From contig JBBIRK010000002.1 in NCBI GenBank assembly GCA_037441845.1, positions 94,854 through 158,853 of the forward strand: a stretch of 64,000 bases of DNA, given 5' to 3'. The stretch is from Candidatus Zixiibacteriota bacterium. Its GTDB lineage: Bacteria; Zixibacteria; MSB-5A5; UBA10806; 4484-95. Position 1 is the first letter of the stretch; the number at the start of each line of letters is the position of its first letter. Under the pieces are notes generated by a model, which saw only the letters and a list, made by a program, of their open reading frames with translations, was not told where the DNA came from and made no database searches. Shown here piece by piece: positions 3,927 to 38,218 of the stretch. Position numbers and translations under genes: made by a program.

Positions 3927-4122
3927 CGATTTTTTGCCGCCGCTCACTTATCCGAGCATCATTGCGATACATCCATTATTTAAGTTGATCGACGTAAGTA
4001 AATTGAACGGCTGGACTCGTTATAACCGGAAGACTAATCGTAACATGTATAATATCAATAAATTACAATATTTTTAATGATTTATTTGATTTTTGCCGAC
4101 TTTTCTGGTAAAAGGCTGAGAA

Positions 4123-5033: not shown

Positions 5034-5091
5034 ACTCTTATTGCCGATAAAAACTCTTTTGTAAGCCTGCCAAATCTATTATAATTGCGCC

Positions 5092-5176
5092 GGAGAGGTG
5101 CCGGAGTGGCCGAACGGGGCGGTCTCGAAAACCGTTGAGCCGCAAGGCTCCCAGGGTTCGAATCCCTGCCTCTCCG
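5092..5176 (+). tRNA. tRNA-Ser (anticodon CGA)
   Basis: Cloverleaf read by hand. Acceptor GGAGAGG pairs with CCTCTCC. Anticodon loop is CTCGAAA. A long variable arm is followed by the T-arm GGTTCGAATCC. Near-identical architecture to E. coli tRNA-Ser(CGA). CCA is not encoded. Confidence 0.85.
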
Positions 5177-5303
5177 TTTTGTTTGCCGTTCATGCGATTC
5201 TGCTCCCCGACTGGAGCAAAACTCTTGGAAAATTCGTTTATAACGATATATTATATAGGTTAACAGGGTCATTCGCCCTGCGCGGATAACTTCAGCCTGT
5301 TTC

Positions 5304-10489: not shown

Positions 10490-11215
10490 TCAGGAAAATA
10501 GTATCGTCTCGATCTCACCGAGCTTTACGATGCAGTAATCAGGCTTGATATCCACATTGTAATTACGGCGAGGGTGATATTTCCAAACCGTTGCGAATCC
10601 GGCAGCCGCCGCACCGACTATATCGACATCGGGGCGATCGCCCACGAACAGGATTCGGTCTGCCGTGAGATCCGCCGATTTTCTTGCCCGCTCGAAAATT
10701 TCCGGCGCCGGTTTGCGGATCCCGACCGCCGACGAGAAAATAGTAAAATCGAAATAATCGCTCAACCCGAAACGTTCCAATTCCCGCTTATGGAAACTTT
10801 CGGGGAAAATGGTATTCGAAAGCAAACCGATTTCGATGCCGGCCACTTTCAGCGAATCCAGCACTTCATCGGCATCATCGATAAGCGTGATTTGCTCCGT
10901 TATCGGTTGATAATATCTTTCCACGAACCGCTCGATCATACCGTCCCGCGACGTTATATCCAGACTCTCAAGCGATCTTGACGTCAGTTCATGCAGCTCG
11001 AGCTCACGGAAATCCGGCCGCTCGTTATCCAGAAGGTGGCGCAAAGCCGCACCGAAAAGCGGGCCGATCTCCTCCGCCGGCGGAATATCCGGATAAGCTT
11101 CTTTCAAAACCGGATAAGCGTTGAGAAATCCTTTTTGGCCGAGCCGGATCCAATCCTGATTTTCGTATTCGATGAGCGTCCCGCCCAAATCGAAAATGAC
11201 CGCATCGAATTTCAT
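10490..11215 (-). CDS. HAD-superfamily hydrolase
   Basis: Motif I is DLGGT in FDAVIFDLGGTLI. C-terminal motif is GDRPDVDI. Start placed at the internal ATG 11213-11215, which overlaps the ddl stop (ATGA). The longer ORF-track N-terminus lies inside the ddl coding region. Confidence 0.75.
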   Translation of the reverse strand: MKFDAVIFDLGGTLIEYENQDWIRLGQKGFLNAYPVLKEAYPDIPPAEEIGPLFGAALRHLLDNERPDFRELELHELTSRSLESLDITSRDGMIERFVERYYQPITEQITLIDDADEVLDSLKVAGIEIGLLSNTIFPESFHKRELERFGLSDYFDFTIFSSAVGIRKPAPEIFERARKSADLTADRILFVGDRPDVDIVGAAAAGFATVWKYHPRRNYNVDIKPDYCIVKLGEIETILFS

Positions 11216-12252
11216 CGCCTTTTCCTTTCGAAATCGGCGATTCCCAGTATGCAGATTTTTTCGAGCAGCTGCGGAAATTCTATCCCCGCGGCGCGCGCCG
11301 CCATCGGCACCAACGAGGTCTCGGTCATTCCCGGAAGGGTGTTGACCTCGAAACAAAATATCCGTCCGTCATCTGTCAATCGGCAATCGACCCTGCCGAA
11401 ACCGGAGCAGCCGATCGCCCGGAACGCTTTCAACCCGACTTTTTGAATCTCCTGTTGCGTTTTTTCGGGCAGTTCCGGGGGGCAAACCTTTCGGGTTTTC
11501 CCCTTGACATATTTATGCTCATAATCGTAAAGCCCTTCGCCGGCGATTATTTCCACCACCGGCAACGGCAAATCACCCAGGATACTTACAGTGAAGTCGC
11601 GTCCCGGAATGTAGCGCTCGAATAAAAGGCGCCGGTCATGGGCGAACCCGGTTTTCAAAGCCGCCCCTATTTCCGATCTCGATGAGATTTTCGAAAGCCC
11701 CACCGATGATCCTTGACAATTAGGCTTGACTATCGCCGGGTAACCGAACGTGGTGACGATCCGCTCATGAATTTCCTCGACAGTCGGGTTCGCTTCCTTT
11801 TCCGCCACGAAATCATCGGGAACGCCGATCCCCTCGGAACGAAACACCTGCTTGGCCAGAAATTTATCCATGGCCAGCGCCGAGGCCAGCGTTCCGGAAC
11901 CGGTGTATGGTATATCAAGCAGGTCCATGACGGCTTGAATGGTTCCGTCCTCGCCATAACCGCCGTGAAGAATATTGAACACCACATCGGCGGTGCGGAC
12001 ATCATCCCTGCCGATAATGGCGTAGGCCGCGGCGCTCGGGCGTCTCCGTAGATCTTCCAAATCGGGGGGCTGTTCCTTGATCGCAGCTATGCCCGCCAGC
12101 TGGTCATCGGTCATCGGCGAGCCATCACCGCCGGTATCGAACGCGATCACCGAATGACCGGCGGAGCGCAACTCGGATACCACGGCCGCCCCGGAAGCCA
12201 GCGAAACATCTCTTTCGGCGGAATTACCGCCCATCAAAACTACTATTTTCAT
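11212..12252 (-). CDS. ddl: D-alanine--D-alanine ligase
   Basis: 346 aa. N-terminus VLMGGNSAERDVSLASG and an ATP-grasp fold pattern. Confidence 0.85.
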   Translation of the reverse strand: MKIVVLMGGNSAERDVSLASGAAVVSELRSAGHSVIAFDTGGDGSPMTDDQLAGIAAIKEQPPDLEDLRRRPSAAAYAIIGRDDVRTADVVFNILHGGYGEDGTIQAVMDLLDIPYTGSGTLASALAMDKFLAKQVFRSEGIGVPDDFVAEKEANPTVEEIHERIVTTFGYPAIVKPNCQGSSVGLSKISSRSEIGAALKTGFAHDRRLLFERYIPGRDFTVSILGDLPLPVVEIIAGEGLYDYEHKYVKGKTRKVCPPELPEKTQQEIQKVGLKAFRAIGCSGFGRVDCRLTDDGRIFCFEVNTLPGMTETSLVPMAARAAGIEFPQLLEKICILGIADFERKRR

Positions 12253-18634: not shown

Positions 18635-18991
18635 TTAACCTTTTATCATCACCAGCAGCATCTTGATTTTTTCGATCGCCTGGAGCGCATGGGGGATATT
18701 AGCAGGCATGATCACGAATTGCCCGGCGTTATAGGTCGATTTTTGCCCGCCGATCGTTATCTCCGCGGCGCCGTCGAGAACCAGCACGAAAGCATCGAAC
18801 GGGGCCGAATGCTCGCTTAACCCCTGCCCTTTATCGAATGAAAATAGGGTGATATTCCCCGTATCTTTCTTGATAAGAGTCTTGCTCACCACCGATCCGG
18901 GCGAATAATCGATGGCGGCGGCTATACCCGAATTTTTTCCTAAAGTATCTTTATAGAGTTCATTGTTGTGCCCTTTCCATTCATTCGCCAT
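18635..18991 (-). CDS. Cupin-domain protein
   Basis: About 118 aa from the internal Met (MANEW...). Cupin two-motif pattern (G..H..P.. ... G..V..P...H). Last gene of the Rieske/cytochrome operon. Confidence 0.6.
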   Translation of the reverse strand: MANEWKGHNNELYKDTLGKNSGIAAAIDYSPGSVVSKTLIKKDTGNITLFSFDKGQGLSEHSAPFDAFVLVLDGAAEITIGGQKSTYNAGQFVIMPANIPHALQAIEKIKMLLVMIKG

Positions 18992-19004: not shown

Positions 19005-19640
19005 TTATTTTTTCGCCCTTTCGGCTTGTGCTTTCCGGCAACGATCGACCGCCTCCGATAATTCGCGCGCATTCGCCGAGTTTTTTTCGATCAACATCTC
19101 ACACAGATTCAGAAGCGCCGGAATCTCTTTCAGCAATAAACCGTAATCCATCTCCACCGCCGCGGGAAGACGAATCAATCGGTGATAGGCAGCCAGCAAA
19201 TACAAAAGGCTTTCCCGCCAGGCGGCGTCGATAGAGCCTCCGATCAACCGATATGTCTGTTGCCGGACCCAACGGCAGCGCGAGGTCCTGTCCTGCCACC
19301 CTTGATAGAACTCCGGTTTCAGGCTGGGCAGCGATACCTCGCTCAATATGTCAAGCAGCTCCAACAGGCTGAGGCGCTGCCTTTCTTCCCAGCGGGAGTC
19401 GCGTTCGGTTTCCACGGCCGGGGCTCCCTCATGCAGATAATCCTGCATCCAAAAATCGAATGCGTCGCGGCCGGGCTGCAGCCGCAGATAAGCCAGCAAG
19501 GCGACCGCATGCCAACCCCAGCAAAGGACGCCTTTTAACGATAGCGGATTGCCGGTCGTGCTTTTCTCCAATTCGTGGGCGGCTCGGCGAAGGCTGTCCA
19601 GGGCGTTTTCGGCCGGACTTATTTTTTCGGACATCGGCAA
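19005..19640 (-). CDS. Hypothetical cytoplasmic protein (operon partner of the cytochrome complex)
   Basis: 211 aa with no recognisable motif. It lies 8 nt downstream of the octaheme cytochrome gene on the same strand. Confidence 0.5.
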   Translation of the reverse strand: MPMSEKISPAENALDSLRRAAHELEKSTTGNPLSLKGVLCWGWHAVALLAYLRLQPGRDAFDFWMQDYLHEGAPAVETERDSRWEERQRLSLLELLDILSEVSLPSLKPEFYQGWQDRTSRCRWVRQQTYRLIGGSIDAAWRESLLYLLAAYHRLIRLPAAVEMDYGLLLKEIPALLNLCEMLIEKNSANARELSEAVDRCRKAQAERAKK

Positions 19641-19647
19641 CTCCCCC

Positions 19648-21243
19648 TTACTGATTATATCTTTGCTTATACGAACTGCGGAGCGCCTCGGCCTCCTTTG
19701 GCGATAATCCCATCAGCCAAAGATGTTCGTCTTGGGTGAGGAACTCCTCGATTTTCCTTTGGTATTTCGCTTTCAAAGCCGGGCTCTTCAGCTCAGCCGT
19801 CTTTACCACCTCGGGAAGGAATTCCGTATAGAAATGCTTGGATACTTCATACATTCCGTGCCAGTGGGTATAGTCCGGCCCCATCATACTCGCCCCATGG
19901 CGCGCCCGCCTGCCTTCGTGATGCCAGAGTTCGTAGAATATCCATTGCAGGTCATGCTCGAAAGGCGCATCCGCTTTCAGAGCACCGTCCGCCAAAAGCT
20001 CATTCATGAATTGCTGCGCCGGCCTGGCGAACTTGTCGTTGTAAAGCGTGACCAAATCGTCATATTGCTTATAGAAATTATCGACATAGGTGTCATTATG
20101 GCAATTCAAACAGACGCCCTTCATGCTCTCCCGCCGGTCCTTCCAGGTGATTATTTTCGCCACAGCGCGTTCCACCTCGCGATTGACCAGCTTTTCGTTT
20201 TCCACGAACTTTTCGATCGTCTTCACCTTATCCCCGATTGCCGGCAACGCTCTGCCTTCGGGGTAATCTTCTTTGAATCCATCCTCGTAAATCACCAAAT
20301 TCAATTTGGTGCTGATGACCGGCCTCAAGGTCCAGCTTATCCTTTCCCCCACGTCGTGCGAATTGCCCACGGCTATCCCTTGCGGCGTCATGTAGCTTGA
20401 AATATGGCAGGTGGCGCAGGTGGGAGCGGCCGAGTAATCCCGCCCGAGAACCCAATCGCCGTCCTTGTCGAGCGCCATTCGATCGCGATTGGCGTAAAAT
20501 GCGATTCCATGCTTGGATTCGTTGTAGATTTCGATTTGCGGATGATCGGGACCCATGTGGCATTTGCCGCAATTCTCCGGCGATCGCGACAATTTCGCCT
20601 GGAAAGCGTGCCGCGAGTGACAAGCATGACACGACCCTTTCGATCCATCGGGATTCAATCTCCCCATGCCGCTGTTGGGCCAGGTGTTCGGATCGATGAC
20701 CGGCTTGTTTTCCTTGCCCGTCCTCAGGATCTCGCCGTTATCGTCGCGGGCGAATTTGACGATCGCCCCGTGGCATTGCCAGCAGCCGTTGACCGCATCG
20801 GCGATATTTCCCGGCTTGCCGGCCACTTTCTCAGCCAATACGTTGTCGAGGCTGGCTAAAATCTCCCCTGCGCGGGCGTGATGACTCTTGGAAAATTCGT
20901 CGTATTCACGGCTGTGACATTTCGCGCAATCGATCGGCGTAACCAAAGCCGATATATACACACCCTCATGCTGCCAGGCGTCGATATCGGTCTTTTGCGC
21001 GCTATGGCAATCGATACAGCCGACACCCAGTTGAGCATGGCGCGATATTTCCCATTCTTGAACCAGCGCCGGTGCGTCTTTGCGATGGCAATCGATACAG
21101 CCCTTATTGGCTCCAGTGATCACCGGCGTCTCGCCGGCTTCTATCCGATGCCGGCGTGATTCTTGATAGGCGACCAGAAGCAACGCCGCCAGAAAGAAAA
21201 CCGAAAGTATCGCCACCACGTATCTTTTGGCATTAAGAGTCAT
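19648..21243 (-). CDS. Octaheme c-type cytochrome, HAO-like (hydroxylamine oxidoreductase / octaheme nitrite reductase superfamily), N-terminally membrane anchored
   Basis: 531 aa. Eight CXXCH motifs: CIDCH, CIDCH, CAKCH, CWQCH, CHACH, CGKCH, CATCH and CLNCH. N-terminal hydrophobic anchor. Helical C-terminal third. Confidence 0.8.
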   Translation of the reverse strand: MTLNAKRYVVAILSVFFLAALLLVAYQESRRHRIEAGETPVITGANKGCIDCHRKDAPALVQEWEISRHAQLGVGCIDCHSAQKTDIDAWQHEGVYISALVTPIDCAKCHSREYDEFSKSHHARAGEILASLDNVLAEKVAGKPGNIADAVNGCWQCHGAIVKFARDDNGEILRTGKENKPVIDPNTWPNSGMGRLNPDGSKGSCHACHSRHAFQAKLSRSPENCGKCHMGPDHPQIEIYNESKHGIAFYANRDRMALDKDGDWVLGRDYSAAPTCATCHISSYMTPQGIAVGNSHDVGERISWTLRPVISTKLNLVIYEDGFKEDYPEGRALPAIGDKVKTIEKFVENEKLVNREVERAVAKIITWKDRRESMKGVCLNCHNDTYVDNFYKQYDDLVTLYNDKFARPAQQFMNELLADGALKADAPFEHDLQWIFYELWHHEGRRARHGASMMGPDYTHWHGMYEVSKHFYTEFLPEVVKTAELKSPALKAKYQRKIEEFLTQDEHLWLMGLSPKEAEALRSSYKQRYNQ

Positions 21244-21271
21244 TTCAATATCTCCTTCCGTTCGGTCTTGG

Positions 21272-22330
21272 TCATGCTAAACTCTCCCACACGGTCAGCA
21301 CCAGGAAAAGCAAGAATACGATCACCCCTATAACCACCGTGAATATTTCACTTAACTTGAACTTGCGCGAAAGCCATTGTTCGATGAAAGGCCAGAAAAA
21401 GATCCCGCCCATAATCAACATCGTGGCCACCACCGACACTTTAAGCGAGGTCATTTTCAGAAGTCGAAAATTGAAATAAAAAAACCATTCGGGTTTGATA
21501 TGCGCGGGCGTCACCGCGGGATCGGCCGGTTCCCCGAGTCCTGCGGGAAACACCAGCGCGAATATGGTCAATATGTACATCAACAATACCCCGATCGCCA
21601 GCTCGGTCGTTACGTGATCCGGCCAGAAACGGAAATGGCTCTGTTCCGCTGTCACCGATTCGCCCTCGAACCGCAGCTCCGTAACCCCCTGAAGTCGAAT
21701 CAATAAAATATGCAAAGCCAGCAATATGAACATAACCGTCGGCAACACCCCTATATGCAAGATATAAAACCGCGTTAGAGTATTTTCTCCTACCACGGGG
21801 CCGCCCCTCAGAAAATAAGCCACAGTCGACCCGATTAGCGGAATCGCCTCGGCCAGGTTGCAGGCCACGGTCGCGCCCCAGAAACTTTGCTGCTGGAAAA
21901 TCAACGAATAGCCGGTGAATCCGAAGGTCACGGTGGTGAGCAACAGGGCGACACCTATCAGCCAGTTCAATTGCCTCGGATGACGATAGGCGCCGGTCAA
22001 AAATACCCTGAGCATATGCAACAGAACCGCCACGATCATGAAATTCGCCGACCATTTATGCAGCGAACGGATAAACCAGCCGAATCGGATTTCATGGGTA
22101 ATCGTGGCCACGGTTTGATAGGCGTATTCCGCCGAGGGCACATAGTAAAATGTCAGCGCGATACCGGTGATCACCTGGACGATGAATAAATACAAAACCG
22201 TGCCGCCCAGGCAGAACCACCACTTTTTCAAATGATATGGAACCGGCTCGGCTCCCGCATGTCGCAAGAGCTCCCAGTCGAACGGAAACATCTCCTTCAG
22301 CGAGGTTACGATTTTTCTCGGCGACCTCAT
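21272..22330 (-). CDS. Cytochrome b (fused b6/subunit-IV type) of a Rieske/cyt b complex
   Basis: 352 aa. About 8 TM helices. The cytochrome b heme-ligand His pattern (HxxR...H) is visible as HKWSANFMIVAVLLHMLR, and a second His pair follows (YILHIG, LALHILL). A PEWF Qo-site motif is present. Confidence 0.85.
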   Translation of the reverse strand: MRSPRKIVTSLKEMFPFDWELLRHAGAEPVPYHLKKWWFCLGGTVLYLFIVQVITGIALTFYYVPSAEYAYQTVATITHEIRFGWFIRSLHKWSANFMIVAVLLHMLRVFLTGAYRHPRQLNWLIGVALLLTTVTFGFTGYSLIFQQQSFWGATVACNLAEAIPLIGSTVAYFLRGGPVVGENTLTRFYILHIGVLPTVMFILLALHILLIRLQGVTELRFEGESVTAEQSHFRFWPDHVTTELAIGVLLMYILTIFALVFPAGLGEPADPAVTPAHIKPEWFFYFNFRLLKMTSLKVSVVATMLIMGGIFFWPFIEQWLSRKFKLSEIFTVVIGVIVFLLFLVLTVWESLA

Positions 22331-22833
22331 ACTTTTCCCCCGACGCTGACATCGTCCACCTCGATATAAACGACACCGCTCGTCTCATCTACGGTGACGA
22401 CCACTTCGTCAAGTCTTTGTCCGGCGTCGCCCGGAGGACCGGCGATCGCTTTTCCGCTCGGGTCGAAAACTCCGTTGTGACAAGGGCAGAAAAACCGGCT
22501 GTTTTCTTCTTCCCAATGGACACTGCAGCCCAAATGCGGACAGCGCGAACTGAATGCTTTGAATCCGGATTCATCGCGCTTGACAAGGATTACTTTCCCT
22601 TGAAGGTCGTAAAATTGCCTTACCTTGCCCACTTCATATTGATCTATATTGCCGGCGAAAAGCTTGCGTTTCTTGACCCCGGTCCGTTGAGGCATCAGAA
22701 ACAACGCACCCTGAACTCCCAACAAACCGTAGCTTAAGAGTATTCCCGCCCCGGCCAAAAGCGAGGCCAACCACTGGCGCCGATTAAGCGGCTTCGATTC
22801 TTCCATATCGTGACCTCCGGAAAACGCCCGCAT
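22327..22833 (-). CDS. Rieske [2Fe-2S] protein with twin-arginine signal
   Basis: CPHLGC ... CPCHNG Rieske boxes. NRRQWL Tat motif. Overlaps the cyt b start by 4 nt. Alternative start at 22806. Confidence 0.88.
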   Translation of the reverse strand: MRAFSGGHDMEESKPLNRRQWLASLLAGAGILLSYGLLGVQGALFLMPQRTGVKKRKLFAGNIDQYEVGKVRQFYDLQGKVILVKRDESGFKAFSSRCPHLGCSVHWEEENSRFFCPCHNGVFDPSGKAIAGPPGDAGQRLDEVVVTVDETSGVVYIEVDDVSVGGKV

Positions 22834-22953: not shown

Positions 22954-22967
22954 TTGACTTAAGTCAA
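22954..22967. promoter_or_regulatory. Perfect 14-bp palindrome TTGACTTAAGTCAA (Crp/Fnr-family type site) upstream of the Rieske operon
   Basis: The palindrome is read directly from the sequence. Its spacing is TTGAC-N4-GTCAA, like the FNR/Crp consensus TTGAT-N4-ATCAA. It lies between the crp/fnr stop and the Rieske start. Confidence 0.5.
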
Positions 22968-22973
22968 TCTTTC

Positions 22974-23648
22974 TCATTTTTCTCCGCGGGCCAACATTTC
23001 GAGCGCCGCCGGATTCAGCACTCGAATTGCGCTCCTCTCCACCCTTATAACCCCGGCCGTGCTCAATTTTCTAAGATTGCGGGAAAGCGTTTCGCCGACC
23101 GTGCCCAGTTTTTTCGCCCACTCCGATTTAGTCATATCCAATTTTATGATGTTTCCACCGCCGGCACGGCATCTTTCGATCAAACTCGCCGCTATTCTTG
23201 CGGACACATCTTTCAAGGCAAGATTGTCGATCAATTGGCTCATTATCCGAAGGTGGCTGCAGAGCGCCTGAATCATCTTCAATCCGACCGCCGGCGATTT
23301 CGCCAGAAGCCGCAAAAATGCGTCGCGCGGACAAAACAGCACTACCGAATCCGCCTGTGCGATACAATTGGCCGGATACTGCCGCCCGTCGAACATCGCG
23401 ACCTCCCCGAAAATCTCCCCCGACTGCGCCAATCGGATAATGACCTCACGACCTTCCGCCGACGACTTGAATATCCTCACCTTGCCATCGAGCAAAACAA
23501 AAAACCCGGTCGCTTCGTCCCCCTCCATGAAAAGCATCTGGCCGCGCGACAACCTTCGAACGGACGTGGCATGGGCGAGATTTGCCAATTCCTTTTTCTC
23601 CAATCCGGCGAATAGATGGCAGTTTTCCAGGAGAGTCGTTGTCCTCAT
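22974..23648 (-). CDS. Crp/Fnr family transcriptional regulator
   Basis: 224 aa. cNMP-binding domain with GEIFGE, and a C-terminal HTH TRQDLANYLG-type region. No N-terminal 4-Cys cluster, so it is not a classical FNR. Confidence 0.8.
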   Translation of the reverse strand: MRTTTLLENCHLFAGLEKKELANLAHATSVRRLSRGQMLFMEGDEATGFFVLLDGKVRIFKSSAEGREVIIRLAQSGEIFGEVAMFDGRQYPANCIAQADSVVLFCPRDAFLRLLAKSPAVGLKMIQALCSHLRIMSQLIDNLALKDVSARIAASLIERCRAGGGNIIKLDMTKSEWAKKLGTVGETLSRNLRKLSTAGVIRVERSAIRVLNPAALEMLARGEK

Positions 23649-23705: not shown

Positions 23706-23735
23706 AATAAAAAAACCCGGGGCGGTTACCCCGGG
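23706..23735 (-). terminator. Rho-independent terminator downstream of T9SS paralog 1
   Basis: 7-bp GC stem CCCGGGG/CCCCGGG with a 6-nt loop, followed by a U-run on the minus strand. Confidence 0.7.
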
Positions 23736-23758
23736 CTACCCCACGGCAATAAGCGTGT

Positions 23759-24646
23759 TTATTTTAGCAGCATCATCTCCCTGGTTTGAACGAAATCCCC
23801 AGCGCTTAACCTATAAAAATACGCCCCCGAGGGAACCGGCTCGCCCGAATCGTTGGTACCATTCCACGAAAATGTGTGAGTTCCCGCCCCCAATGTCCCC
23901 GAGTAAATGGTATTTATTTTTTGTCCAAGAAGATTGAACACTTCGAGCGACACCCGACCCGATTGCGGTATGAGAAATTCTATGTTCGTAGTAGGATTGA
24001 ATGGATTCGGAAAATTCTGCTTCAAAATATAGTCGGTCGGCAAACCCGACACGTCGTCTATCCCGGTTCCCACACCGTAATTGAACGAACCCGGCACGAT
24101 TCTCGGCGTGAAACTGTTCGCGCCGTCCGGCATACCGAAATTGGCGCTTCCCGCGCGCCGATCGCGGGTAGTATCTATGGTCACTATCTGCCTGACCGCA
24201 GTCGGCCTGATCTTGAAAATCATTTCCATGCCGACCACTCGTTGCAATCCTGTATAAAGCGGCGGATTATCCGGTCCGCCCAGATCGGACCAGCCGATTA
24301 TGCTGGCGAAATTGCTGTCCTGGCTGATTCTATACCAAGTGTCATCCCAGCCGCTGAACGCCTCACGCCAAAGTATCGAGTCAAGATAAATCTGGTCATC
24401 GGTCGACGTCCACATCGTGGGCAACGTGAAATCGCTCACCGAGTCATCGGTCACGAAATTAACTTCGACCACCACTCGCGACCAGTTTCCCGGATTATAA
24501 GGGACGTAAATGCCGCTTTGATAAATGACCGTATCCGGAACCCCCGGATCCACTGCATATGCCGATAGGGCCAGCATGGCAACCATTAAAGAGACTACTG
24601 CTGATGCTTTCATCGAGGAAACCTCCCTGCTATGGCTAATGCCCAA
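23759..24646 (-). CDS. Secreted protein of unknown function with T9SS C-terminal sorting domain (paralog 1 of 4)
   Basis: 295 aa. Signal peptide. Shares a conserved N-terminal domain of about 150 aa with the next three genes. C-terminus NFPNPFNP...SGAYFYRL...MMLLK is a type-A T9SS CTD. Confidence 0.75.
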   Translation of the reverse strand: MGISHSREVSSMKASAVVSLMVAMLALSAYAVDPGVPDTVIYQSGIYVPYNPGNWSRVVVEVNFVTDDSVSDFTLPTMWTSTDDQIYLDSILWREAFSGWDDTWYRISQDSNFASIIGWSDLGGPDNPPLYTGLQRVVGMEMIFKIRPTAVRQIVTIDTTRDRRAGSANFGMPDGANSFTPRIVPGSFNYGVGTGIDDVSGLPTDYILKQNFPNPFNPTTNIEFLIPQSGRVSLEVFNLLGQKINTIYSGTLGAGTHTFSWNGTNDSGEPVPSGAYFYRLSAGDFVQTREMMLLK

Positions 24647-25005
24647 AGCATGATATTATTTTCATTAACCATCCTTGTCAAAAATCGTTCCCAAAATCAA
24701 ATTGATTGTGGCCATGCCTACCCATTCGGCAAGTATGGGAACTTTCCCATAATCGTCGCGATAACTTGATTTTCATGAACGAAATATCATTCAGATGCAT
24801 TCCTTGCCGCCGTTTAATTCAATCTACCAGGCTTGTGATTGCTTGATTAATTTAAGGGATAGCACGGCCGTTTTTCTTAATTTCAGTAAAACTTATGAAA
24901 ATCGGTGCAGTCTGTGCGAATAATTTCGTAGCTCGGAAACGAAAACGCCGCTCATCGATGCCATCAGAATCGAATTCGATTTATCAGCCAAAGATATGCT
25001 GGTTT

Positions 25006-25863
25006 TCAGCGAAGCAGAATCATCGTTTTTGTCTCAACGAAACCGCCGGCGGTTAACCGATAGAAATAAACCCCCGAGGGCATCACGGCGCCGGATTCGT
25101 TGCGGCCGTCCCAACGAACGGTGTAGAAACCTGCCTCCCGCTTCCCCCCGACAAGAGTGATTACTTTCTGACCCAGAAGGTTATATATCTCGAGCGCAAC
25201 CTCGGCGGATATCGGCAACTGGAAATCTATACTCGTCTCTGGATTGAACGGATTAGGATAATTCCGGCCAAGCGCGAATTCCTCGGGCAGCGGGCTATCC
25301 TCGCCATCAACACCCGTCGGATACTGATATCTGATAAAACCGCTTCTGAATGCGGGCACGAACGAATACCATCCGTGGGGACCTCCGAAATCTATCGCCC
25401 CGTTTATCGGATCGGTAGTGGTATCGATAACTACGAACTGCTGGCATTCGGCTCCTTGAAGTATCACGAAACGGAGATCCATCCCCCATAACCTTTGCCC
25501 ATTGGTCAATAGCGGCGGATTATCGTCTCCGCCGATATCGGCGAAAGCTATTTGCCTCAGCAAGTTTTGGGCTAACAAAAGAGTATCGTAACAATCATCC
25601 CATTCGGTAAACGTCTCCCGCCAAACCGTACGTCCCGGAAAAATCCTGCCGTCCGTCGAGGTCCAGCGCAGCGGCAGATTCACCCAGACGATCGAATCAT
25701 CGGTGACGAACCATACGTGCACGTAAACCGTGCCGCCGTTAGGCATGCATTCAACGTTAATAGTGTCTATTATGACGCTGTCTCGCGCCCCCGGATCCTG
25801 CGCATAGGCAGCCAAGGTCAATCCGATTATCATCACCATCGCCACATACATTAATTTATTCAT
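25006..25863 (-). CDS. Secreted T9SS-sorted protein, paralog 2 of 4
   Basis: Start at the internal Met with signal peptide (MNKLMYVAMVMI...). Conserved DPGARDSVIIDT...FVTDDS...GGDDNPPLL...WGMDLRF core. C-terminal NYPNPFNP...VYFYRL...MILLR CTD. Confidence 0.75.
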   Translation of the reverse strand: MNKLMYVAMVMIIGLTLAAYAQDPGARDSVIIDTINVECMPNGGTVYVHVWFVTDDSIVWVNLPLRWTSTDGRIFPGRTVWRETFTEWDDCYDTLLLAQNLLRQIAFADIGGDDNPPLLTNGQRLWGMDLRFVILQGAECQQFVVIDTTTDPINGAIDFGGPHGWYSFVPAFRSGFIRYQYPTGVDGEDSPLPEEFALGRNYPNPFNPETSIDFQLPISAEVALEIYNLLGQKVITLVGGKREAGFYTVRWDGRNESGAVMPSGVYFYRLTAGGFVETKTMILLR

Positions 25864-25984
25864 TGGCGCTCCTTGCCGGATTATTATAGCATTCCCTAAA
25901 AGGTCAATATCCCTCGATGGAGTTCCATCCAATTGTCTTACAACGTTATTTTAATCTCCCCTTAAGGAGATTGTCAAGCGCAAT

Positions 25985-26015
25985 AAAAAAACACCACGCC
26001 GAATTCGACGTGGTG
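25985..26015 (-). terminator. Rho-independent terminator of paralog 3 (identical copy at 27053-27084)
   Basis: CACCACG/CGTGGTG stem followed by a 7-nt U-run on the minus strand. Confidence 0.7.
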
Positions 26016-26392
26016 TTGAGGTTGATCGTAATCGCCGGGCTATCGATTCAAAAGCCCCCGCCATCATTCCTCAGCGAAGCATTATCATCTTGTTGGTCTT
26101 GACGAAATCGCCGGCCGTCATCCGATAAAAATATACTCCCGACGGCACCAAGTCACCCGAATCGTTGGTCCCGTTCCAACGCACCGTATGATAACCCGCC
26201 TCACGATAGTCCGATACCAACGTCTTAACCTTCTGACCCAGCAGATTGTAAACTTCCAACGTTACATTGGTGGCCGAGGGCAGCCGGAATTCGATATTGG
26301 TCTCCGGATTGAACGGGTTGGGATAATTCTGCATCAAGGCGATCTCCGTAGGCAACGCCGTCGGCGTATCTCCGATACCTGTGGCACCGCCG
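25985..26392. repeat. About 408-bp near-identical direct repeat, copy A (3' end of paralog 3 plus terminator)
   Basis: Hand alignment: one mismatch (ccgatacc versus ccaatacc) against 27054-27462. Confidence 0.85.
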
Positions 26393-26925
26393 TACCTGAG
26401 AAATCCTCTCTTTAGAGCCGGCACGAAATCATAGTCGCCGCGCGGCCCGCCGAAACCCACCGTGCCGTTTCTCGGGTCCCTAACGGTATCGACCCAGACG
26501 AATTGCGGCGTCGCACCCGGGAATATCACGAACCGCAAATCCATTCCCCAGAGCCTTTGGCCGGCGGTTAGCAATGGGGGATTATCAGCGCCGCCTACAT
26601 CGGCAAAAGCGACCTGTCGTAATAGACGTTCGGCGACGAGCAGCGTATCGTATCGCTCGTCCCACTGATTAAAAACTTCGCGCCAAACCGTGTGCCCCGG
26701 AATTATAAGATTATCCGGCGATGTCCATGTGATAGGCAGATTGACGAACATAATCGAATCATCGGTGACGAAATAGACATGGATATAACGGGTTCCTCCG
26801 CCGGGCAACAAATCCACGTTTACCGTGTCGATGATCAAACTATCGCGGGCGCCCGGATCCTGGGCATCGGCGATAGCAGCCGCCGCAAGCACAATTGCCA
26901 AAATTATGCTATACCATTTCCTCAT
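26071..26925 (-). CDS. Secreted T9SS-sorted protein, paralog 3 of 4
   Basis: 284 aa. About 85% identical to paralog 4 over the N-terminal 175 aa, and 100% identical over the C-terminal ~105 aa. Confidence 0.8.
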   Translation of the reverse strand: MRKWYSIILAIVLAAAAIADAQDPGARDSLIIDTVNVDLLPGGGTRYIHVYFVTDDSIMFVNLPITWTSPDNLIIPGHTVWREVFNQWDERYDTLLVAERLLRQVAFADVGGADNPPLLTAGQRLWGMDLRFVIFPGATPQFVWVDTVRDPRNGTVGFGGPRGDYDFVPALKRGFLRYGGATGIGDTPTALPTEIALMQNYPNPFNPETNIEFRLPSATNVTLEVYNLLGQKVKTLVSDYREAGYHTVRWNGTNDSGDLVPSGVYFYRMTAGDFVKTNKMIMLR

Positions 26926-27052
26926 CTTTGGCTCCTTTCCAAGAAATTACAAGGAAACTACATCCGCCTTTGATATTCCCCGTTGTATATCATCATAATA
27001 TATAACTATATTAGTTTATAATCCGCTTCATAAAACTGTCAAGAAGAATCGA

Positions 27053-27084
27053 AAAAAAACACCACGCCGAATTCGACGTGGTGT
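27053..27084 (-). terminator. Rho-independent terminator of paralog 4
   Basis: Identical hairpin and U-run to the 25985-26015 copy. Confidence 0.7.
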
Positions 27085-27462
27085 TGAGGTTGATCGTAAT
27101 CGCCGGGCTATCGATTCAAAAGCCCCCGCCATCATTCCTCAGCGAAGCATTATCATCTTGTTGGTCTTGACGAAATCGCCGGCCGTCATCCGATAAAAAT
27201 ATACTCCCGACGGCACCAAGTCACCCGAATCGTTGGTCCCGTTCCAACGCACCGTATGATAACCCGCCTCACGATAGTCCGATACCAACGTCTTAACCTT
27301 CTGACCCAGCAGATTGTAAACTTCCAACGTTACATTGGTGGCCGAGGGCAGCCGGAATTCGATATTGGTCTCCGGATTGAACGGGTTGGGATAATTCTGC
27401 ATCAAGGCGATCTCCGTAGGCAACGCCGTCGGCGTATCTCCAATACCTGTGGCACCGCCGTA
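27054..27462. repeat. About 408-bp near-identical direct repeat, copy B (3' end of paralog 4 plus terminator)
   Basis: See copy A. Confidence 0.85.
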
Positions 27463-27993
27463 TCTCAGGTAACCTTTCTTAACCACCGGCCGGAACGACC
27501 AATTGCCGTTGGGACCGCCGAAATCGATCGAACCGTTTATGGGGTCGCGGGTCGTATCGACCCAAACGAACTGCGGCACCGCACCCGGGAATATCACGAA
27601 ACGCAAATCCATTCCCCAAAGCCGCTGTCCGTTGGTCAAAAGCGGCGGATTATCGCTTCCACCGATATCAGCCCAGGCCACATGCCGAAGCAATCTCTGG
27701 GCAACCAACAGCGTGTCAAAATGATCGTCCCACTGAGTGAAGACCTCGCGCCAAACCGTGTGGCCGGGTATGATAAGATTATCCGGCGATGTCCAAGTTA
27801 TAGGCAGATTTACGAACATAATCGAATCATCGGTGACGAAATAGACATGGACATAACGGGTTCCTCCACCCGGTAACAAATCCACGTTAATCGTGTCGAT
27901 GATGACCGTGTCGCGTATGCCTGGATCCTGGGCAAATGCCCCAAAAGCCATCAACAGCACAAGCCCGGCCGCAACAAAAACCAACCTCTTCAT
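27139..27993 (-). CDS. Secreted T9SS-sorted protein, paralog 4 of 4
   Basis: 284 aa. Signal peptide, conserved core domain and identical CTD. AT-rich promoter region upstream (27994-28176). Confidence 0.8.
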   Translation of the reverse strand: MKRLVFVAAGLVLLMAFGAFAQDPGIRDTVIIDTINVDLLPGGGTRYVHVYFVTDDSIMFVNLPITWTSPDNLIIPGHTVWREVFTQWDDHFDTLLVAQRLLRHVAWADIGGSDNPPLLTNGQRLWGMDLRFVIFPGAVPQFVWVDTTRDPINGSIDFGGPNGNWSFRPVVKKGYLRYGGATGIGDTPTALPTEIALMQNYPNPFNPETNIEFRLPSATNVTLEVYNLLGQKVKTLVSDYREAGYHTVRWNGTNDSGDLVPSGVYFYRMTAGDFVKTNKMIMLR

Positions 27994-32116: not shown

Positions 32117-34270
32117 TCACCCTCGTGCAGGATTGGAAATCCCCTTCTCCTGCGCTTTCACGGACCCGGATAAAACTGTATCGAGCAGCGATTTTATTTT
32201 GCCCATTTCAAACGGCTTCGCCAATATCGCATCGAGCCCACCCTTGGCCGCGGTTTCCTCATCGATTTGATTTCCCCATCCGGAAATCATGATAACCGGA
32301 ATCTCAGGGCGTAATTCCTTGCAGATCCGCGTCACGTCCCAGCCGCTCAGACCGGGCATACCCAAATCGGTGATCACCAGATCGAAAGGTTGCTGGCGGA
32401 ACAATTCCACCCCGCGGTCGCCGGACGATGCCGAACACACCTGATGTCCCAGATATTCGAGCATATCGGAAACGACTTCCCTGATATTATCGTCGTCATC
32501 GATCAACAGGATACGCGCCTTATGCACTTCCTTGACCGCAGGCTGTTGCTTTTCCTCTTTGGCTATTTCTTTGGCCAACGGAATCGTGATAATGATGGTC
32601 GTTCCCACGCCAACTTTGGAACTGACGTCGATTTCGCCCTTGTGCCTGCCGATCACGCCGTAGGCAACCGACATCCCCATCCCCGTCCCCTGCTTTCCCT
32701 TGGTGGTGAAAAACGGGAAAAAGATCCGTTTGAGAGTGGCTTCATCCATGCCGATACCGTTATCCTCGATCCGGACCACGGCGTTCTGTTCACGGCTGAT
32801 AGCCTCGATACGGATTACGCCGCCTTTCGCCAGAGCATCGACCGAGTTCAAAATAAGATTGGAGAACGCCTCGACCAGTTCAGAGGAGTTCCCGAGAATC
32901 GGTAAACGAGGTTCATGCTCGTAACGCAGCTCGATAACTGTCCCCACCTTCTGGCATTCGTCTTTCCATCGAGGACGGGTCATCTCGATCGAGTCTTGAA
33001 TGACCCGCACCAGATCGATCATTTCGTAACCGCTGCCCGAGGATACCCGCGTGAAATTCTGCATCCGCTGAACCGTCTTGGCGCCCGCCAGCGTGACTTT
33101 CTCGATCTGCCTCAGATGCTCGGCGATCTGATCGTCTTTGACCACACGCAACAACAGCTGAGTGCGGCCGAGAATGGTCCCGAGAATGTTATTGAAATCG
33201 TGCGCCACCCCACCGGCCATTTCGCCCAATGCCCGTAGTTTCTCGGTCATTATCAATTGCTCCTGCGTATTGGCCAACTCCTGATAAGCTTTCTCCAGGC
33301 TCTCGTACAGTTTGGCGTTTTCGATCGCATCGGCGGTTTGGCGGGCGAATATGGTCAATATATCGAGATCCTCCTGCTTGAATACTTTGCAGCGATACGA
33401 ACGCAACGTAATGACCCCGATAACTTCCCCGGACCAGGTGAGAGGAGCACAGATCAAAGATTCGGGATCGTCGGGCGTCCCCGGAACCTGTATAGCGCGG
33501 GGATCGACATGACTTTGATTGGAAATCAGCCCGATCCCCGACTTGGCTACCAGGCCGGTCAAGCCCTCGCCCACTTTCAAGCGTATCCTGGCGATCTGCT
33601 CGGAATGCTTGGGATCTATGGTCACCAGCGGAGACAAAATGCCGCTTTTTTTATCGAGTATAAAAATCGAACCGCCGTCCGCCCCTACAATATCCATAGA
33701 GAGACGAACCGCTTTTTCCAGAACTTCTTTATAGTTCAGCGAGGAATAGATTGCAGTGGAAAGCTCAAGCAACGCCGCCAGCTTGGCATTCGATTCTTTA
33801 CCCTTGTCTTCCTTCAACGACAGCTTGAGCGAAAGCGCAGTCTGTTCGGTGATCAAAGCCGCCTTATCGAACGTATTTATCGTATAATCCTGCGGCGTCT
33901 TCTCCCACCCCCAAACCAGAAAACCGCAGCCATGCGATTCCATGTCGAAAGGAACCGCCAGCACATTGCGACATTTGAGTTTCCTGCGAAATACGGCCAC
34001 CGGAAGAAAGTCGTCGCGGTCGAAAATGGGCAAAGTGCCATCGGCCTCGCGGCAGGTCCTGCGTTTCAGGCAAGACTCACGAGCTGCGGCCCTGATTTCA
34101 CTCAGCAGTTCTCCAATTTCCAAATTATCGGGTTTTTCGTTGATGAACAACTGACCGTTCTGGAAATCAGAGTCGAATATGACCAGCGCGAAATAATCGG
34201 CCGCAAGAATACGAAGCGCCCTCGTGGAAACCGCATTGAAGATGGAAATGACCGTATCTTTATCCGGCAT
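32117..34270 (-). CDS. Hybrid sensor histidine kinase/response regulator with tandem GAF domains
   Basis: 717 aa. GAF region. HisKA H-box AHDFNNIL. HATPase N/G boxes (NLILNSVDA, GTGMGM). C-terminal REC domain. Confidence 0.85.
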   Translation of the reverse strand: MPDKDTVISIFNAVSTRALRILAADYFALVIFDSDFQNGQLFINEKPDNLEIGELLSEIRAAARESCLKRRTCREADGTLPIFDRDDFLPVAVFRRKLKCRNVLAVPFDMESHGCGFLVWGWEKTPQDYTINTFDKAALITEQTALSLKLSLKEDKGKESNAKLAALLELSTAIYSSLNYKEVLEKAVRLSMDIVGADGGSIFILDKKSGILSPLVTIDPKHSEQIARIRLKVGEGLTGLVAKSGIGLISNQSHVDPRAIQVPGTPDDPESLICAPLTWSGEVIGVITLRSYRCKVFKQEDLDILTIFARQTADAIENAKLYESLEKAYQELANTQEQLIMTEKLRALGEMAGGVAHDFNNILGTILGRTQLLLRVVKDDQIAEHLRQIEKVTLAGAKTVQRMQNFTRVSSGSGYEMIDLVRVIQDSIEMTRPRWKDECQKVGTVIELRYEHEPRLPILGNSSELVEAFSNLILNSVDALAKGGVIRIEAISREQNAVVRIEDNGIGMDEATLKRIFFPFFTTKGKQGTGMGMSVAYGVIGRHKGEIDVSSKVGVGTTIIITIPLAKEIAKEEKQQPAVKEVHKARILLIDDDDNIREVVSDMLEYLGHQVCSASSGDRGVELFRQQPFDLVITDLGMPGLSGWDVTRICKELRPEIPVIMISGWGNQIDEETAAKGGLDAILAKPFEMGKIKSLLDTVLSGSVKAQEKGISNPARG

Positions 34271-37200
34271 GGCTGTATTCCACTCCGTATATGCTTAATC
34301 TGCCGACCAGGGTATTGAAACGATCCTGATCCGAAGGCATCCCTTTCAAATAAAACGTTTCTTTCCAATCGGCGCCGAATCCGCTTGTTCGCGATTTATC
34401 CGAAATCACCGAGATAATCGGCAAATTCCAGTATTCGACCTTCAACTGCTTAATCAGGTTCGACGCTTCGCCGCCGAACGAATCGATATCGACCAGAACA
34501 GCGCGGATCGATTTCGTCTTGAGCAACCGCCCAAGGCTTTTTATATCCGCAGCTTTTTCGCCGCGATTGCCCGACTGTAAGATCAATCTCGATATATTTT
34601 CGCAAAACGATTCGGACCCGCTCAAAATGGCGAAAACGAGCCCGCCGCCCATAATTCGTGATTCCGTGAACTTGGGCAAAACTATATTGAATGTCGTCCC
34701 CTTGCCCGGGTCGCTTTCAACCGTTATTTCACCGCCATGTCCCTTGATAATCGCATCGACCATGGTCAAACCGAGTCCGGTTCCGCTCCGGCCCTTAGTC
34801 GTGAAGAAAGGATCGAATATTCTTTTGACCACTTGGGGCTCCATGCCGGACCCGTTGTCCGAAACCGATATTCTAATTTCGTGATCGCCGGCTTCGGCGG
34901 CGACTTCGATTTTACCCGCTTTTTCGATAGCGTCGGCGGCGTTCAAGATCAGGTTGTTGAACACCTCGATCATCTGCGTCCGATCGCCTTTCGCCCGAAG
35001 ATCGCCGCCGAATTTCGTGGAAATCTCGATCGATTTGCGGCAACCGGGATCCTCCCAGCGCGAACGAGCCATTTCGATCGAATCGTTTATTATCTCCTTG
35101 AGATTTAACTGCGTAAATATCGCTTCACTCTTGTTCTTGGCGAATTCGTTTATCCGCGATAAAATGTTGACGCCGTCGGTCGCTGATTTCTCGATCACAT
35201 TCAACCCTTTGATTATCGTTTCTTCGGGAAGCGTCCCTTTTTCCGCCAGCCCATGGCGAAGAAGTTGCGCCCGCCCGACCACGGCCGCCAAAATGTTCTT
35301 GAAATCGTGCGCGATGCCAGCCGCCACCTCGCCCAAGGCTTTCAACTTCTCGGCCTGTATCAATTTCTCTTGGGTTTCGTTCAGTCTGATATAAGCGTCT
35401 TTGACCTCACCGTAAAGCTGGGCGTTATTGAGAGCGATTTCGAGATGCGCCGAAACATCTCTCAACAAATCCTTATCCTGCTTGCTGAACCCCTCGGCTC
35501 TGGTATTGCCCACGATAAGGAATCCCTTGATGGCGCCCCGCTGCCTGATCGGGCAGATCGCCAGATGATTGATCCCCCGCGAAAGAAATCCATCGCGCGC
35601 CCTGACTGCGGTTTCCAAACCTCCCGCAGGCACGAACAGCGACTCGCCGGACGCCAGCACCTTCTCGAATTCGGCCTTAAGGCTTTCGGCGTCGATCACA
35701 CCGCCCGCGCCATGGGAATCGCCGCTTTTTACCATATACTCGGAATGAACCGCATAACCGGTCTCGCTCCTGATTACCAGAACCGACATGTTGAAGTCGG
35801 TTAATTCCGACATCGTCTTTGCGATCCGATGAAACAGCTCGTCTATTTCGAGCGTGGCCGAGATCGCTTGATATATGCGATCGACCAACGCCAGCCGGTT
35901 TGCCTTCTCCAAAATCCCGCGATACAGCTTGATATTGCTGATCGCCACCGCCAAAAATTCGGCGAAAGTCTGTATCGTGGAAACATCGATGGCAGAAAAC
36001 GAACTCAGACGCCGATCGTTCAAATCGAGGACGCCGAAAAAGTCGTAACCGGCTATCAACGGCAGGCAGAAACGCGACTTTATACCTTCGATTGAATCGG
36101 TCTCCTGTGCGGCTCGCTTTTCATCGGCAAGTATATTCGACATCTGCAGAGCCGCCTTGCCCACCAGGCCCTCGCCCATTTGGAAACTTGTCCCAGGTTC
36201 ATACCCGTCGCCGTAGCGGCAACTCTGTTTTACCAAACTCAAAGCTCCGTTTTCGGTGGGCATGAATACGGCCGCATGATCGAAACCGAATCCCTCGGTC
36301 AATCCTTTCACCGCCTCCTCGAGTAACTGACCTTCGTCCAGCACTCCCGAAAGCCGTTTCACCAGCCCATTGATCAGAGCCAGCTTTTGCATCCTTTCTT
36401 TTTCGAGCTGTTTCAGTTTGATTTTTTCGTAAGCCGCCGCTACCTGATCCGCAATCGATGCCAGCAGATCTTCCTCACGCTTACCGAATGCGTATTTCTG
36501 ACGCGACTCCACATCGAGAACACCCACTACGATACCGTTGAGGATCACGGGGACTGCCAGTTCCGAGGCCGTATTGCCGGTGGAAACGACGAATCGATCG
36601 TCTTTGCTCACGTCCCCCACATTGATTATTTTGCCGGTGGCCGCCGCGAATCCGGTTATCCCCTCCTTGCCTATCGCCAGCCTTTTTCCGAATTCGATCT
36701 TTGGACAATCACCGGTCATCGAGGTCAGGCAAAGCTCGTCCGTGGCGAAATCCCTCGTGAAAAACGAACAAGTCGAAAAATTGAAATTTTCCGAAATCGC
36801 CTTAAGCACCTTTTCGAAAAACGGAATCAGATCAAGATCGGAATTCAACGCCTGCCCCACGTCGAACATGGTCTTGATTTGGGCGACCTTGTCGGTGACC
36901 ATCAGATAAAGCCTGGCGTTGGCGATCGCCGCCGCCGCCTGAGCCACCAGCGCCGCACTAAGATCAACCACCTCATTATCCAAACGGGCCCGTTCGGCCG
37001 TCCTCTGCTCGACCATGATAAGAATTCCGGTCAACTTTCCGGCATGCTTCAACGGCGCTATCAACGTCTTGGCGCTTCCCTTGATTTTAAGCACCGCGGC
37101 GTGGCTATCGGGAATTTTGGCGATCTCCTCGGCCTCGAGCAGAATCGGCGATCCCAACATCACCACTTCTTGCAGCCACGCCATATCGTCCACGTTCAAC

Positions 37201-38213: not shown

Positions 38214-38218
38214 ACGAA

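Follow-up and report, generated by a model that had tools for sequence, protein, structure and literature searches.

The locus described here raises the question of what an octaheme cytochrome c does in one operon with the Rieske and the cytochrome b subunit of a quinol-oxidizing complex, and in which direction the electrons would pass between them. The operon lies on the minus strand of a 64,000-nucleotide (nt) stretch of DNA from Candidatus Zixiibacteriota bacterium (GenBank assembly GCA_037441845.1, contig JBBIRK010000002.1, positions 94,854 to 158,853), the whole of which is referred to below as the window. An earlier note on this stretch had compared the operon with the Rieske/cytochrome b complexes found in anammox bacteria and had considered both an oxidative and a reductive octaheme. 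In the present analysis, the conserved core of the operon was found to be three genes, those of the Rieske protein, the cytochrome b and the octaheme. Their products probably form, with a probability of about 0.65, a proton-motive menaquinol:nitrite (hydroxylamine or nitric oxide, NO) oxidoreductase similar to cytochrome b6f, in which an octaheme of the HAO family would replace cytochrome f/c1.

Organization of the operon

The five minus-strand genes described in the earlier note as a tight operon were all present as open reading frames (ORFs), with an overlap of 4 nt and gaps of no more than 28 nt. The Rieske gene (22327-22833) shares 4 nt with the cytochrome b gene (21272-22330), which encodes 352 amino acids (aa) and is followed after a 28-nt gap by the octaheme gene (19648-21243, 531 aa). 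Two small genes, encoding a 209-aa protein and a cupin, complete the unit. The motifs reported earlier, namely the twin-arginine translocation (Tat) signal of the Rieske protein, the PEWF motif of a fused cytochrome b and eight CXXCH motifs in a 531-aa octaheme, were confirmed by script, and the domain assignments agreed with Pfam, which assigned Rieske to the first protein, Cytochrome_B and Cytochrom_B_C to the second, Multi-haem_cyto (PF13447) to the octaheme and Cupin_2 to the last gene product. The span previously given for the operon, 19005-22833, holds four of the genes, while the fifth one listed, the cupin gene, lies just outside it. The order of the three core genes recurred in 32-33 of 80 related loci, which shows that the arrangement is not due to chance.

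Rieske protein and cytochrome b

The Rieske [2Fe-2S] subunit with its Tat-type signal anchor comprises 168 aa as the longest ORF; the probable start is Met10 at 22806, giving 159 aa, as in the gene call of a 94%-identical relative. The protein matched Pfam Rieske with an E-value of 3e-11, and the cluster boxes CPHLGC at residue 98 and CPCH at residue 116, including the disulfide cysteines, were located by script. The twin-arginine motif N-R-R-Q-W-L is followed by a hydrophobic stretch. The likeness to the anammox complex proposed in the earlier note was upheld at the level of this subunit, the best solved match being Kuste4569 of the R/b-3 complex (9rk4, E 5.6e-13). Box II reads CPCHNGVF and has Gly and Phe instead of the Ser and Tyr of high-potential Rieske proteins. 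In the yeast Rieske protein, the potential drops by about 130 and 65 mV when the hydrogen-bond donors Ser and Tyr of box II, respectively, are mutated. Since both residues are missing from box II, the cluster is probably of low potential, and a match with menaquinol can reasonably be expected.

The closest solved structure to the cytochrome b was cytochrome b6 (E 2e-56), and residues 236-349 matched subunit IV, which indicates a fused b6/subunit-IV protein. The histidine pairs His91/His105 and His192/His207 are kept, the latter spaced as in b6. Cys40, within FCLGG, aligned with YCLGG of b6, the attachment site of heme ci, and the Qo motif PEWF is located at residue 280. The roles of the histidine ligands, the heme ci cysteine and the Qo motif are presumed to be those established for b6f. 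A cytochrome b of the ExtP/ExtQ type from selenite operons was rejected due to the score of 227 bits against a cut-off of 290 and the lack of an ext context.

Family assignment of the octaheme

The octaheme matched PF13447 with an E-value of 1e-22 and 81 bits, well above the cut-off of 21.9. Its closest solved relative was IhOCC (4qo5), with E-values of 2e-43 for the single sequence and 2e-56 for the family profile. With the profile, the other solved structures of the HAO family gave E-values of 7e-24 (6h5l), 1.5e-19 (1fgj, NeHAO) and 2e-17 (4n4j); with the single sequence, HAOr (6h5l) gave 2.5e-19. The matches after IhOCC followed the order Kustc0458 (HAOr), NeHAO, KsHOX and HDH. The alignment with IhOCC was unbroken from the second to the seventh heme motif, and aligned stretches covered the fourth up to the eighth. 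The segment of about 50 residues that separates motifs four and five was included, whereas in the NeHAO alignment it is left uncovered. The octaheme and IhOCC also have the C-terminal motif R-x-G-x-x-M-x-G-x-D-[YW]-T in common.

The eight CXXCH motifs are located at residues 49, 76, 106, 154, 205, 225, 276 and 378, and no CXXCK was found by script over the 531-aa protein. An identity as ONR, NrfA, OTR or an MtrA-type protein was rejected because CXXCK is absent and the NCBIfam matches were marginal; the match to NCBIfam NrfA was negligible, at E 0.0035 and 16 bits where the cut-off is 595. D233 and H234 aligned, within a confidently aligned block, with the distal-pocket residues D267 and H268 of NeHAO. 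Thus, the membership in the HAO family suggested in the earlier note was borne out by PF13447, by the matches to HAO structures and by the Asp-His pair. The two findings which that note had named as refuting, a best alignment with a non-HAO family or homologues that are never syntenic with Rieske/cytochrome b, were not made.

A beta-rich insertion between heme motifs 7 and 8 (residues 313-365) was modelled with a predicted local distance difference test (pLDDT) score of 83-93. It forms a gap in the alignment with NeHAO and lies outside the alignment with IhOCC too. It possibly serves for docking or represents a domain specific to the lineage.

The cross-link tyrosine

The chemistry of HAO-type octahemes is related to a tyrosine cross-linked to the catalytic heme. 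The C-terminus of NeHAO was checked against 4fas, in which the cross-link Tyr467 lies in GGWTYTEGW; the counterpart in KsHOX is Tyr451 in NQTYGNG. The corresponding loop of the octaheme is G455-P-D-Y458-T-H460-W461-H-G463. When 63 C-terminal domains were aligned by MAFFT in the L-INS-i, G-INS-i and E-INS-i modes, Tyr467 was paired with Trp461 of the octaheme and with Phe494 of IhOCC, and across the family the Tyr467 column contained Trp 43 times, Phe three times and Tyr once. In the global mode of hhalign, Tyr467 was paired with His460 at low confidence. Although the alignment of the loop is insecure, neither the three MAFFT modes nor hhalign placed a tyrosine of the octaheme at the position of NeHAO Tyr467. 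The earlier note had proposed to check the catalytic tyrosine; a tyrosine at the cross-link position was absent in all alignments, and the Asp-His pair is kept.

The nearby Tyr458 is replaced by Phe in 5 of 120 orthologues at least 70% identical to the octaheme (the close orthologues below). More widely in the family, Trp, Phe or His takes its place; IhOCC has Trp. According to Soares et al. (PMC9250108), IhOCC is an octaheme nitrite reductase without P460, and the Tyr cross-link arose within the HAO/HDH subclade. Most bacterial HAO homologues outside anammox bacteria are predicted to be reductive (PMC12758564). Judged from the alignments, the Tyr cross-link is very probably absent from the octaheme of the window, and with no tyrosine at the Tyr467 position a reductive enzyme is most likely.

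Distribution, synteny and membrane anchor

The family of the octaheme is large: 7,999 of the 8,000 candidates scored were matches, more than 120 clusters were at least 70% identical, and 1,937 representatives of 50%-identity clusters were found at E<=1e-3. Relatives occurred in at least 593 species genomes. Synteny was counted in the best 80 genome loci carrying octaheme relatives. The Rieske and cytochrome b genes were located directly upstream of the octaheme in the same order in 32 of these and in one further, incomplete locus, whereas 45 loci had neither gene and 3 were too short to tell. Synteny of the octaheme homologues with Rieske/cytochrome b is thus frequent.

The linked loci belonged to Zixibacteriota, Ignavibacteriota, Bacteroidota, a metagenome-assembled genome (MAG) of the Fibrobacterota-Chlorobiota-Bacteroidota (FCB) group, KSB1, Latescibacterota, Gemmatimonadota, Acidobacteriota (including Thermoanaerobaculia and Holophagae), Binatia, Deltaproteobacteria/Syntrophobacterales, Anaerolineae and Planctomycetales. 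The statement that such a linkage is rare outside anammox bacteria is thus wrong, as the cassette was found in about a dozen non-anammox phyla; nor is the concept new, since a publication of 2017 had described this order in Caldithrix abyssi. The flanking genes of the cassette are unrelated between loci, which indicates a self-contained three-gene cassette. The phyla were intermixed in a rough neighbour-joining tree, and this suggests horizontal transfer. In one complete-genome relative (L083, 10600-11970), the octaheme gene meets at its 3' end a convergent gene for glutamate dehydrogenase.

Residues 1-36 of the octaheme are hydrophobic, lack a signal-peptidase site and were conserved at 50% identity or more in 112 of the 120 closest clusters; the predicted anchor helix covers residues 3-36. 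In contrast, the stand-alone orthologues of Verrucomicrobiota, Elusimicrobiota, Planctomycetota, Brocadia and Scalindua have ordinary, divergent signal peptides. These soluble orthologues are 64-77% identical to the octaheme. Among the present data, the sequence conservation of the anchor in the linked form alone speaks most clearly for the octaheme as a genuine subunit of the Rieske/cytochrome b complex, with which we infer a physical association. Two stand-alone paralogues per genome were observed in one Ignavibacteria MAG (L034 and L040) and in Brocadia sapporoensis (L037 and L071); the latter pair matches the published hao5A/hao5B pair.

More distant octahemes, 47-49% identical, were found in three loci of Desulfobulbaceae and Desulfamplus (L075, L078 and L080, about 3200-5970). 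There the octaheme is preceded by a tetraheme protein, a Tat-signal protein and a 400-aa membrane protein, which putatively resemble NrfH, NrfC and NrfD, respectively. The presence of a different putative quinol-dehydrogenase module in front of these relatives suggests that the octaheme serves as a terminal module and receives its electrons from the quinol pool.

Proposed mechanism and alternatives

The proposed direction of electron flow, quinone type, substrate, product and Q-cycle would be as follows. The three proteins would form a membrane complex like cytochrome b6f or a menaquinol bc complex, in which the HAO-family octaheme stands in place of cytochrome f/c1 and is held by its own N-terminal helix. 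A quinol, probably menaquinol, would be oxidized at the Qo site (PEWF). One electron would be transferred from the Rieske cluster to the N-terminal hemes of the octaheme and further to the catalytic heme 4, where nitrite, hydroxylamine or NO would be reduced on the periplasmic side, ammonium being the likeliest product and NO the alternative. Since the first heme motif, at residue 49, follows the predicted anchor helix by 12 residues, heme 1 would be situated near the membrane surface. The second electron would pass through hemes bL, bH and ci to the Qi site. By this Q-cycle, nitrite reduction would be coupled to proton-motive force, unlike in NrfH-type systems. The electron route to an extracellular acceptor, also suggested in the earlier note, gained no support.

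Several observations weigh against this mechanism. The hhalign comparisons with NeHAO and KsHOX were confident only for the first helix after heme 8 and not for the Tyr loop, and Tyr458, which is nearly invariant (115 of 120 close orthologues), is only 2-3 residues away from the position aligned with Tyr467. The heme-free AlphaFold model of the octaheme was poor in the heme core (pLDDT 64, and below 50 through residues 201-301). A search for nap, nar, nir, nor and nitrate/nitrite transporter genes gave no match in the window, and none next to the operon in four long related contigs. The HAO family has three C-terminal oligomerization helices and the oxidative HAOs are homotrimers, whereas bc complexes are typically dimeric; HAO-type enzymes are thus likely trimers and bc-type cores dimers, and the joint stoichiometry does not obviously match. 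In the case of the anammox complex, AlphaFold3 did not dock the octaheme Kuste4574 onto it.

The alternative which survives best assumes the same architecture, but the octaheme would stop at one electron and reduce nitrite to NO, like HAOr, or to hydroxylamine, serving denitrification or detoxification. HAOr, which lacks the cross-link, reduces nitrite to NO (PMC8042395), and the GPDHP pocket motif of the octaheme is identical to that of Kustc0458, while IhOCC has Asp-Val at the position of D233-H234. In addition, the counterpart of NeHAO Tyr334 is an invariant arginine, Arg307, and Hao-like octahemes have been proposed as stand-ins for NirK/NirS in Phycisphaerae. However, the closest characterized relative is IhOCC and not HAOr (E 2e-43 vs 2.5e-19), the single cultured carrier of the gene order makes ammonium, and no nor or nos genes were found nearby. 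A one-electron product is therefore considered possible, at clearly lower probability than the reduction to ammonium in the proposed menaquinol:nitrite oxidoreductase.

It is unlikely that the octaheme is a non-catalytic electron-exit subunit, which as a substitute of c1/f would feed other periplasmic reductases or carriers. Such a role would agree with the operon having no fixed partner genes and with the replacement of c1/f by multiheme cytochromes c in several Rieske/cytochrome b complexes, those of anammox bacteria included; the complex of Caldithrix was considered by its authors as a donor to NapM. In contrast, the Asp-His pair is invariant in the close orthologues (D233 in 119 and H234 in all 120), the stand-alone soluble orthologues fit an enzyme rather than a docking subunit, and all the solved structures matched, as well as the characterized HAO-family members in the cited literature, are enzymes.

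A Rieske/cytochrome b complex oxidizes quinol, and running it in reverse would cost proton-motive force. That the octaheme is oxidative and Tyr-cross-linked, returning electrons from hydroxylamine or hydrazine to the membrane complex, is very improbable: the Asp-His pair is common to oxidative HAOs and Tyr458 lies in the loop which carries the cross-link tyrosine of NeHAO, but all the computed alignments put Trp461 or His460 at the Tyr467 position, Tyr458 is Phe in five close orthologues, the cross-linked enzymes belong to the separate HAO/HDH subclade with most non-anammox homologues predicted to be reductive (PMC9250108, PMC12758564), and no amo or hzs genes are located nearby.

Comparison with known systems

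The proposed menaquinol:nitrite oxidoreductase has its nearest described counterpart in Caldithrix abyssi, where Cabys_2558, Cabys_2557 and Cabys_2556 encode a Rieske protein, a cytochrome b and an epsilon-Hao beside a nap cluster (PMC5317091). This organism reduces nitrate to ammonium without NrfA, and its epsilon-Hao lacks the tyrosine (PMC5317091). The authors suggested that electrons pass from quinol through Rieske/cytochrome b to the octaheme, which reduces nitrite to ammonium in a possibly electrogenic process (PMC5317091). The gene order, compared by the published description only, is the same as in the window; Caldithrix belongs to the FCB superphylum, and the closest relatives of the window appear to do so as well. 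A difference is that the three Caldithrix genes adjoin nap, the authors counting Rieske/cytochrome b in the Nap cluster and regarding NapM as the likely mediator, whereas neither the operon of the window nor those of the other loci examined have adjacent nap genes.

The R/b-3 complex of Kuenenia stuttgartiensis (Kuste4569-4574) similarly combines a b6f-like Rieske/cytochrome b with an HAO-like octaheme proposed to reduce nitrite. However, R/b-3 has separate b6 and subunit IV proteins, an extra hexa-/octaheme cytochrome c and an NAD(P) oxidoreductase (PMC12954380), none of which is present in the operon of the window. In contrast to CPCHNGVF, box II of Kuste4569 (CPCHGSKY) contains both Ser and Tyr, and the potential of this Rieske protein is +303 mV; Kuste4574 is a close homologue of HAOr from another HAO subclade than the octaheme of the window. 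The equivalence with kuste4569-4574 envisaged in the earlier note is not sustained by the fused cytochrome b, the missing NAD(P) oxidoreductase and extra multiheme protein and the differing octaheme subclade; on these sequence features, the anammox comparison is a fair analogy and not an equivalence.

IhOCC (Igni_0955, 4QO5) is an archaeal protein of Ignicoccus hospitalis, for which the accessible part of the literature reports an occurrence in both soluble and membrane fractions and makes no mention of a Rieske/cytochrome b linkage. Proteins of Brocadia and Scalindua are 64-71% identical to the octaheme and are encoded by stand-alone genes with signal peptides and no adjacent Rieske/cytochrome b. 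We infer that these orthologues belong to hao5A/hao5B. The hao5 genes form an independent cluster outside the main anammox HAO clade, in which HAO5A groups with Ignicoccus, and according to the same literature the function of hao5B is still unknown (Okubo et al., PMC7814187; PMC12758564).

Epsilon-Hao and HAOr (Kustc0457/0458, 6H5L) belong to the HAO family, lack the Tyr cross-link and are reductive, as is predicted for the octaheme of the window, and the epsilonproteobacterial epsilon-Hao is listed as a dissimilatory nitrite reductase. Their sequences are only distantly related to the octaheme and their partners differ, HAOr having a diheme protein and epsilon-Hao other carriers, neither of them Rieske/cytochrome b. 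NrfHA and ONR resemble the proposed system in the periplasmic multiheme reduction of nitrite fed from the quinol pool; they differ in the catalytic heme of NrfA/ONR, which is bound by the CXXCK missing from the octaheme. The quinol oxidation of NrfH-type systems is not known to be a Q-cycle.

The 209-aa protein and the cupin

The fourth gene of the operon (19005-19640, minus strand) is optional and encodes an all-helical cytoplasmic protein of unknown function. Its probable ATG at 19634 gives 209 aa, identical to the database protein P0121 and of the same length as in a 94%-identical relative, and the gap to the octaheme gene is 7-13 nt. No match to it was found in Pfam, NCBIfam, PDB or PADLOC, and its 191 homologues are all unnamed. 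The homologues were located only downstream of the octaheme in Rieske/cytochrome b operons, adjacent to it in 11 genome loci and in L081/L082, and one gene further downstream in another complete-genome relative (L084). In L084, the gene between the octaheme and the 209-aa homologue (10609-11688) encodes a membrane iron-sulfur protein of the Fer4_5 (NapH-like) type. About two thirds of the Rieske-cytochrome b-octaheme operons lack the 209-aa protein.

The last gene of the unit (18635-18991, minus strand), separated by a 13-nt gap, encodes a cupin_2 protein of 118 aa without a signal peptide. This form matches a database entry exactly and is called at the same length in a 94%-identical relative; the longest ORF reaches 19072 and would overlap the preceding gene. 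The protein matched Pfam Cupin_2 (E 6e-11), the nearest structures being the uncharacterized cupins 3rns and 1yhf. It is not conserved in other Rieske/cytochrome b-octaheme operons. In two loci of Verrucomicrobiota and one of Elusimicrobiota (L033 7594-7941, L046 9328-9603 and L058 5510-5842), homologues 55-59% identical were found beside stand-alone octahemes, in L058 directly upstream of the octaheme on the same strand. About 0.1 such adjacencies were estimated to occur by chance at one copy per genome, and the link between cupin and octaheme thus appears to be independent of Rieske/cytochrome b. No support was found for the suggestion that the two small genes encode maturation or accessory subunits, the 209-aa protein being absent from most of the operons and the cupin standing outside the conserved one.

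Upstream region and other features of the window

A regulator of the CRP/FNR family (22974-23648, minus strand; Pfam cNMP_binding and HTH_Crp_2) is encoded directly upstream of the operon. It has the recognition-helix motif E-T-L-S-R (E-x-x-S-R type) and lacks an FNR-type N-terminal Cys cluster. The position of the gene next to the operon is kept in the 94%-identical relatives and not in other phyla. A perfect 14-bp FNR/CRP-type palindrome, TTGACTTAAGTCAA (22954-22967), lies between the regulator and Rieske genes; as counted from a TACAAT -10-like hexamer, its centre precedes the presumed transcription start by about 41 nt. With a relaxed FNR/CRP pattern, 5 matches were obtained in the window, where 1.2 were expected. 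The box upstream of the Rieske gene is identical in L003 (Zixibacteriota), near-identical in L002 and L010, and identical or similar in L081/82; it recurs in one Zixibacteriota, one FCB-group and one unclassified locus. As a general feature of the operon, the FNR box was rejected, being found in only 3 of 26 other operons at a background rate of 2.3%, and it is therefore regarded as lineage-specific. In this lineage, regulation of the operon by the adjacent CRP/FNR protein is probable.

A strong terminator-like hairpin on the minus strand (23714-23737; a 10-bp stem, 7 pairs of which are G-C, and then a T-run) is predicted to close the upstream gene and thus marks the 5' boundary of the unit. 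Four tandem paralogues of 284-308 aa with a mutual identity of 46-84% are located directly upstream of the regulator (23759-27993). These are secreted proteins with C-terminal sorting tails of the type IX secretion system (T9SS) type, detected as Por_Secre_tail/FlgD_ig in the L081 relatives; the 94%-identical relatives have three copies. At 32117-40348, three large proteins with GAF domains are encoded one after another (717, 1317 and 709 aa), the first two with a histidine-kinase ATPase domain and the first also with a receiver domain. The ORFs at 5304-7007 (plus strand, 567 aa) and 60886-62823 (minus strand, 645 aa) had no Pfam match at E<=1e-5.

Biological implications

The system is of a known kind, as the idea has been in the literature since 2017, and it is far more widespread than the earlier note assumed. 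Tentatively, and with less confidence than the mechanism itself, the cassette could be viewed as a widespread, horizontally mobile and proton-motive quinol:nitrite oxidoreductase, which would constitute a third respiratory route of ammonification from nitrite beside NrfHA and ONR that is missed by surveys of nrfA and onr. According to the accessible part of its report, a large genome survey of nitrate ammonifiers screened nrfA and onr only (PMC10716430). As the cassette is present in many uncultured phyla of soil, sediment and groundwater, nitrogen retention could be underestimated by such surveys.

If the proposed mechanism is true, HAO-type nitrite reduction would be energy-conserving via a Q-cycle, whereas NrfH-dependent ammonification is not. 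A presumably trimeric HAO-type enzyme on a dimeric bc-type core would then be a structurally new supercomplex. The membrane-bound octaheme of the cassette could also represent the ancestral form of the hao5 enzymes of anammox bacteria. With its three subunits, the cassette would serve as a simple model for the poorly understood HAO-linked Rieske/cytochrome b complex of these bacteria, and it may help to explain hao5.

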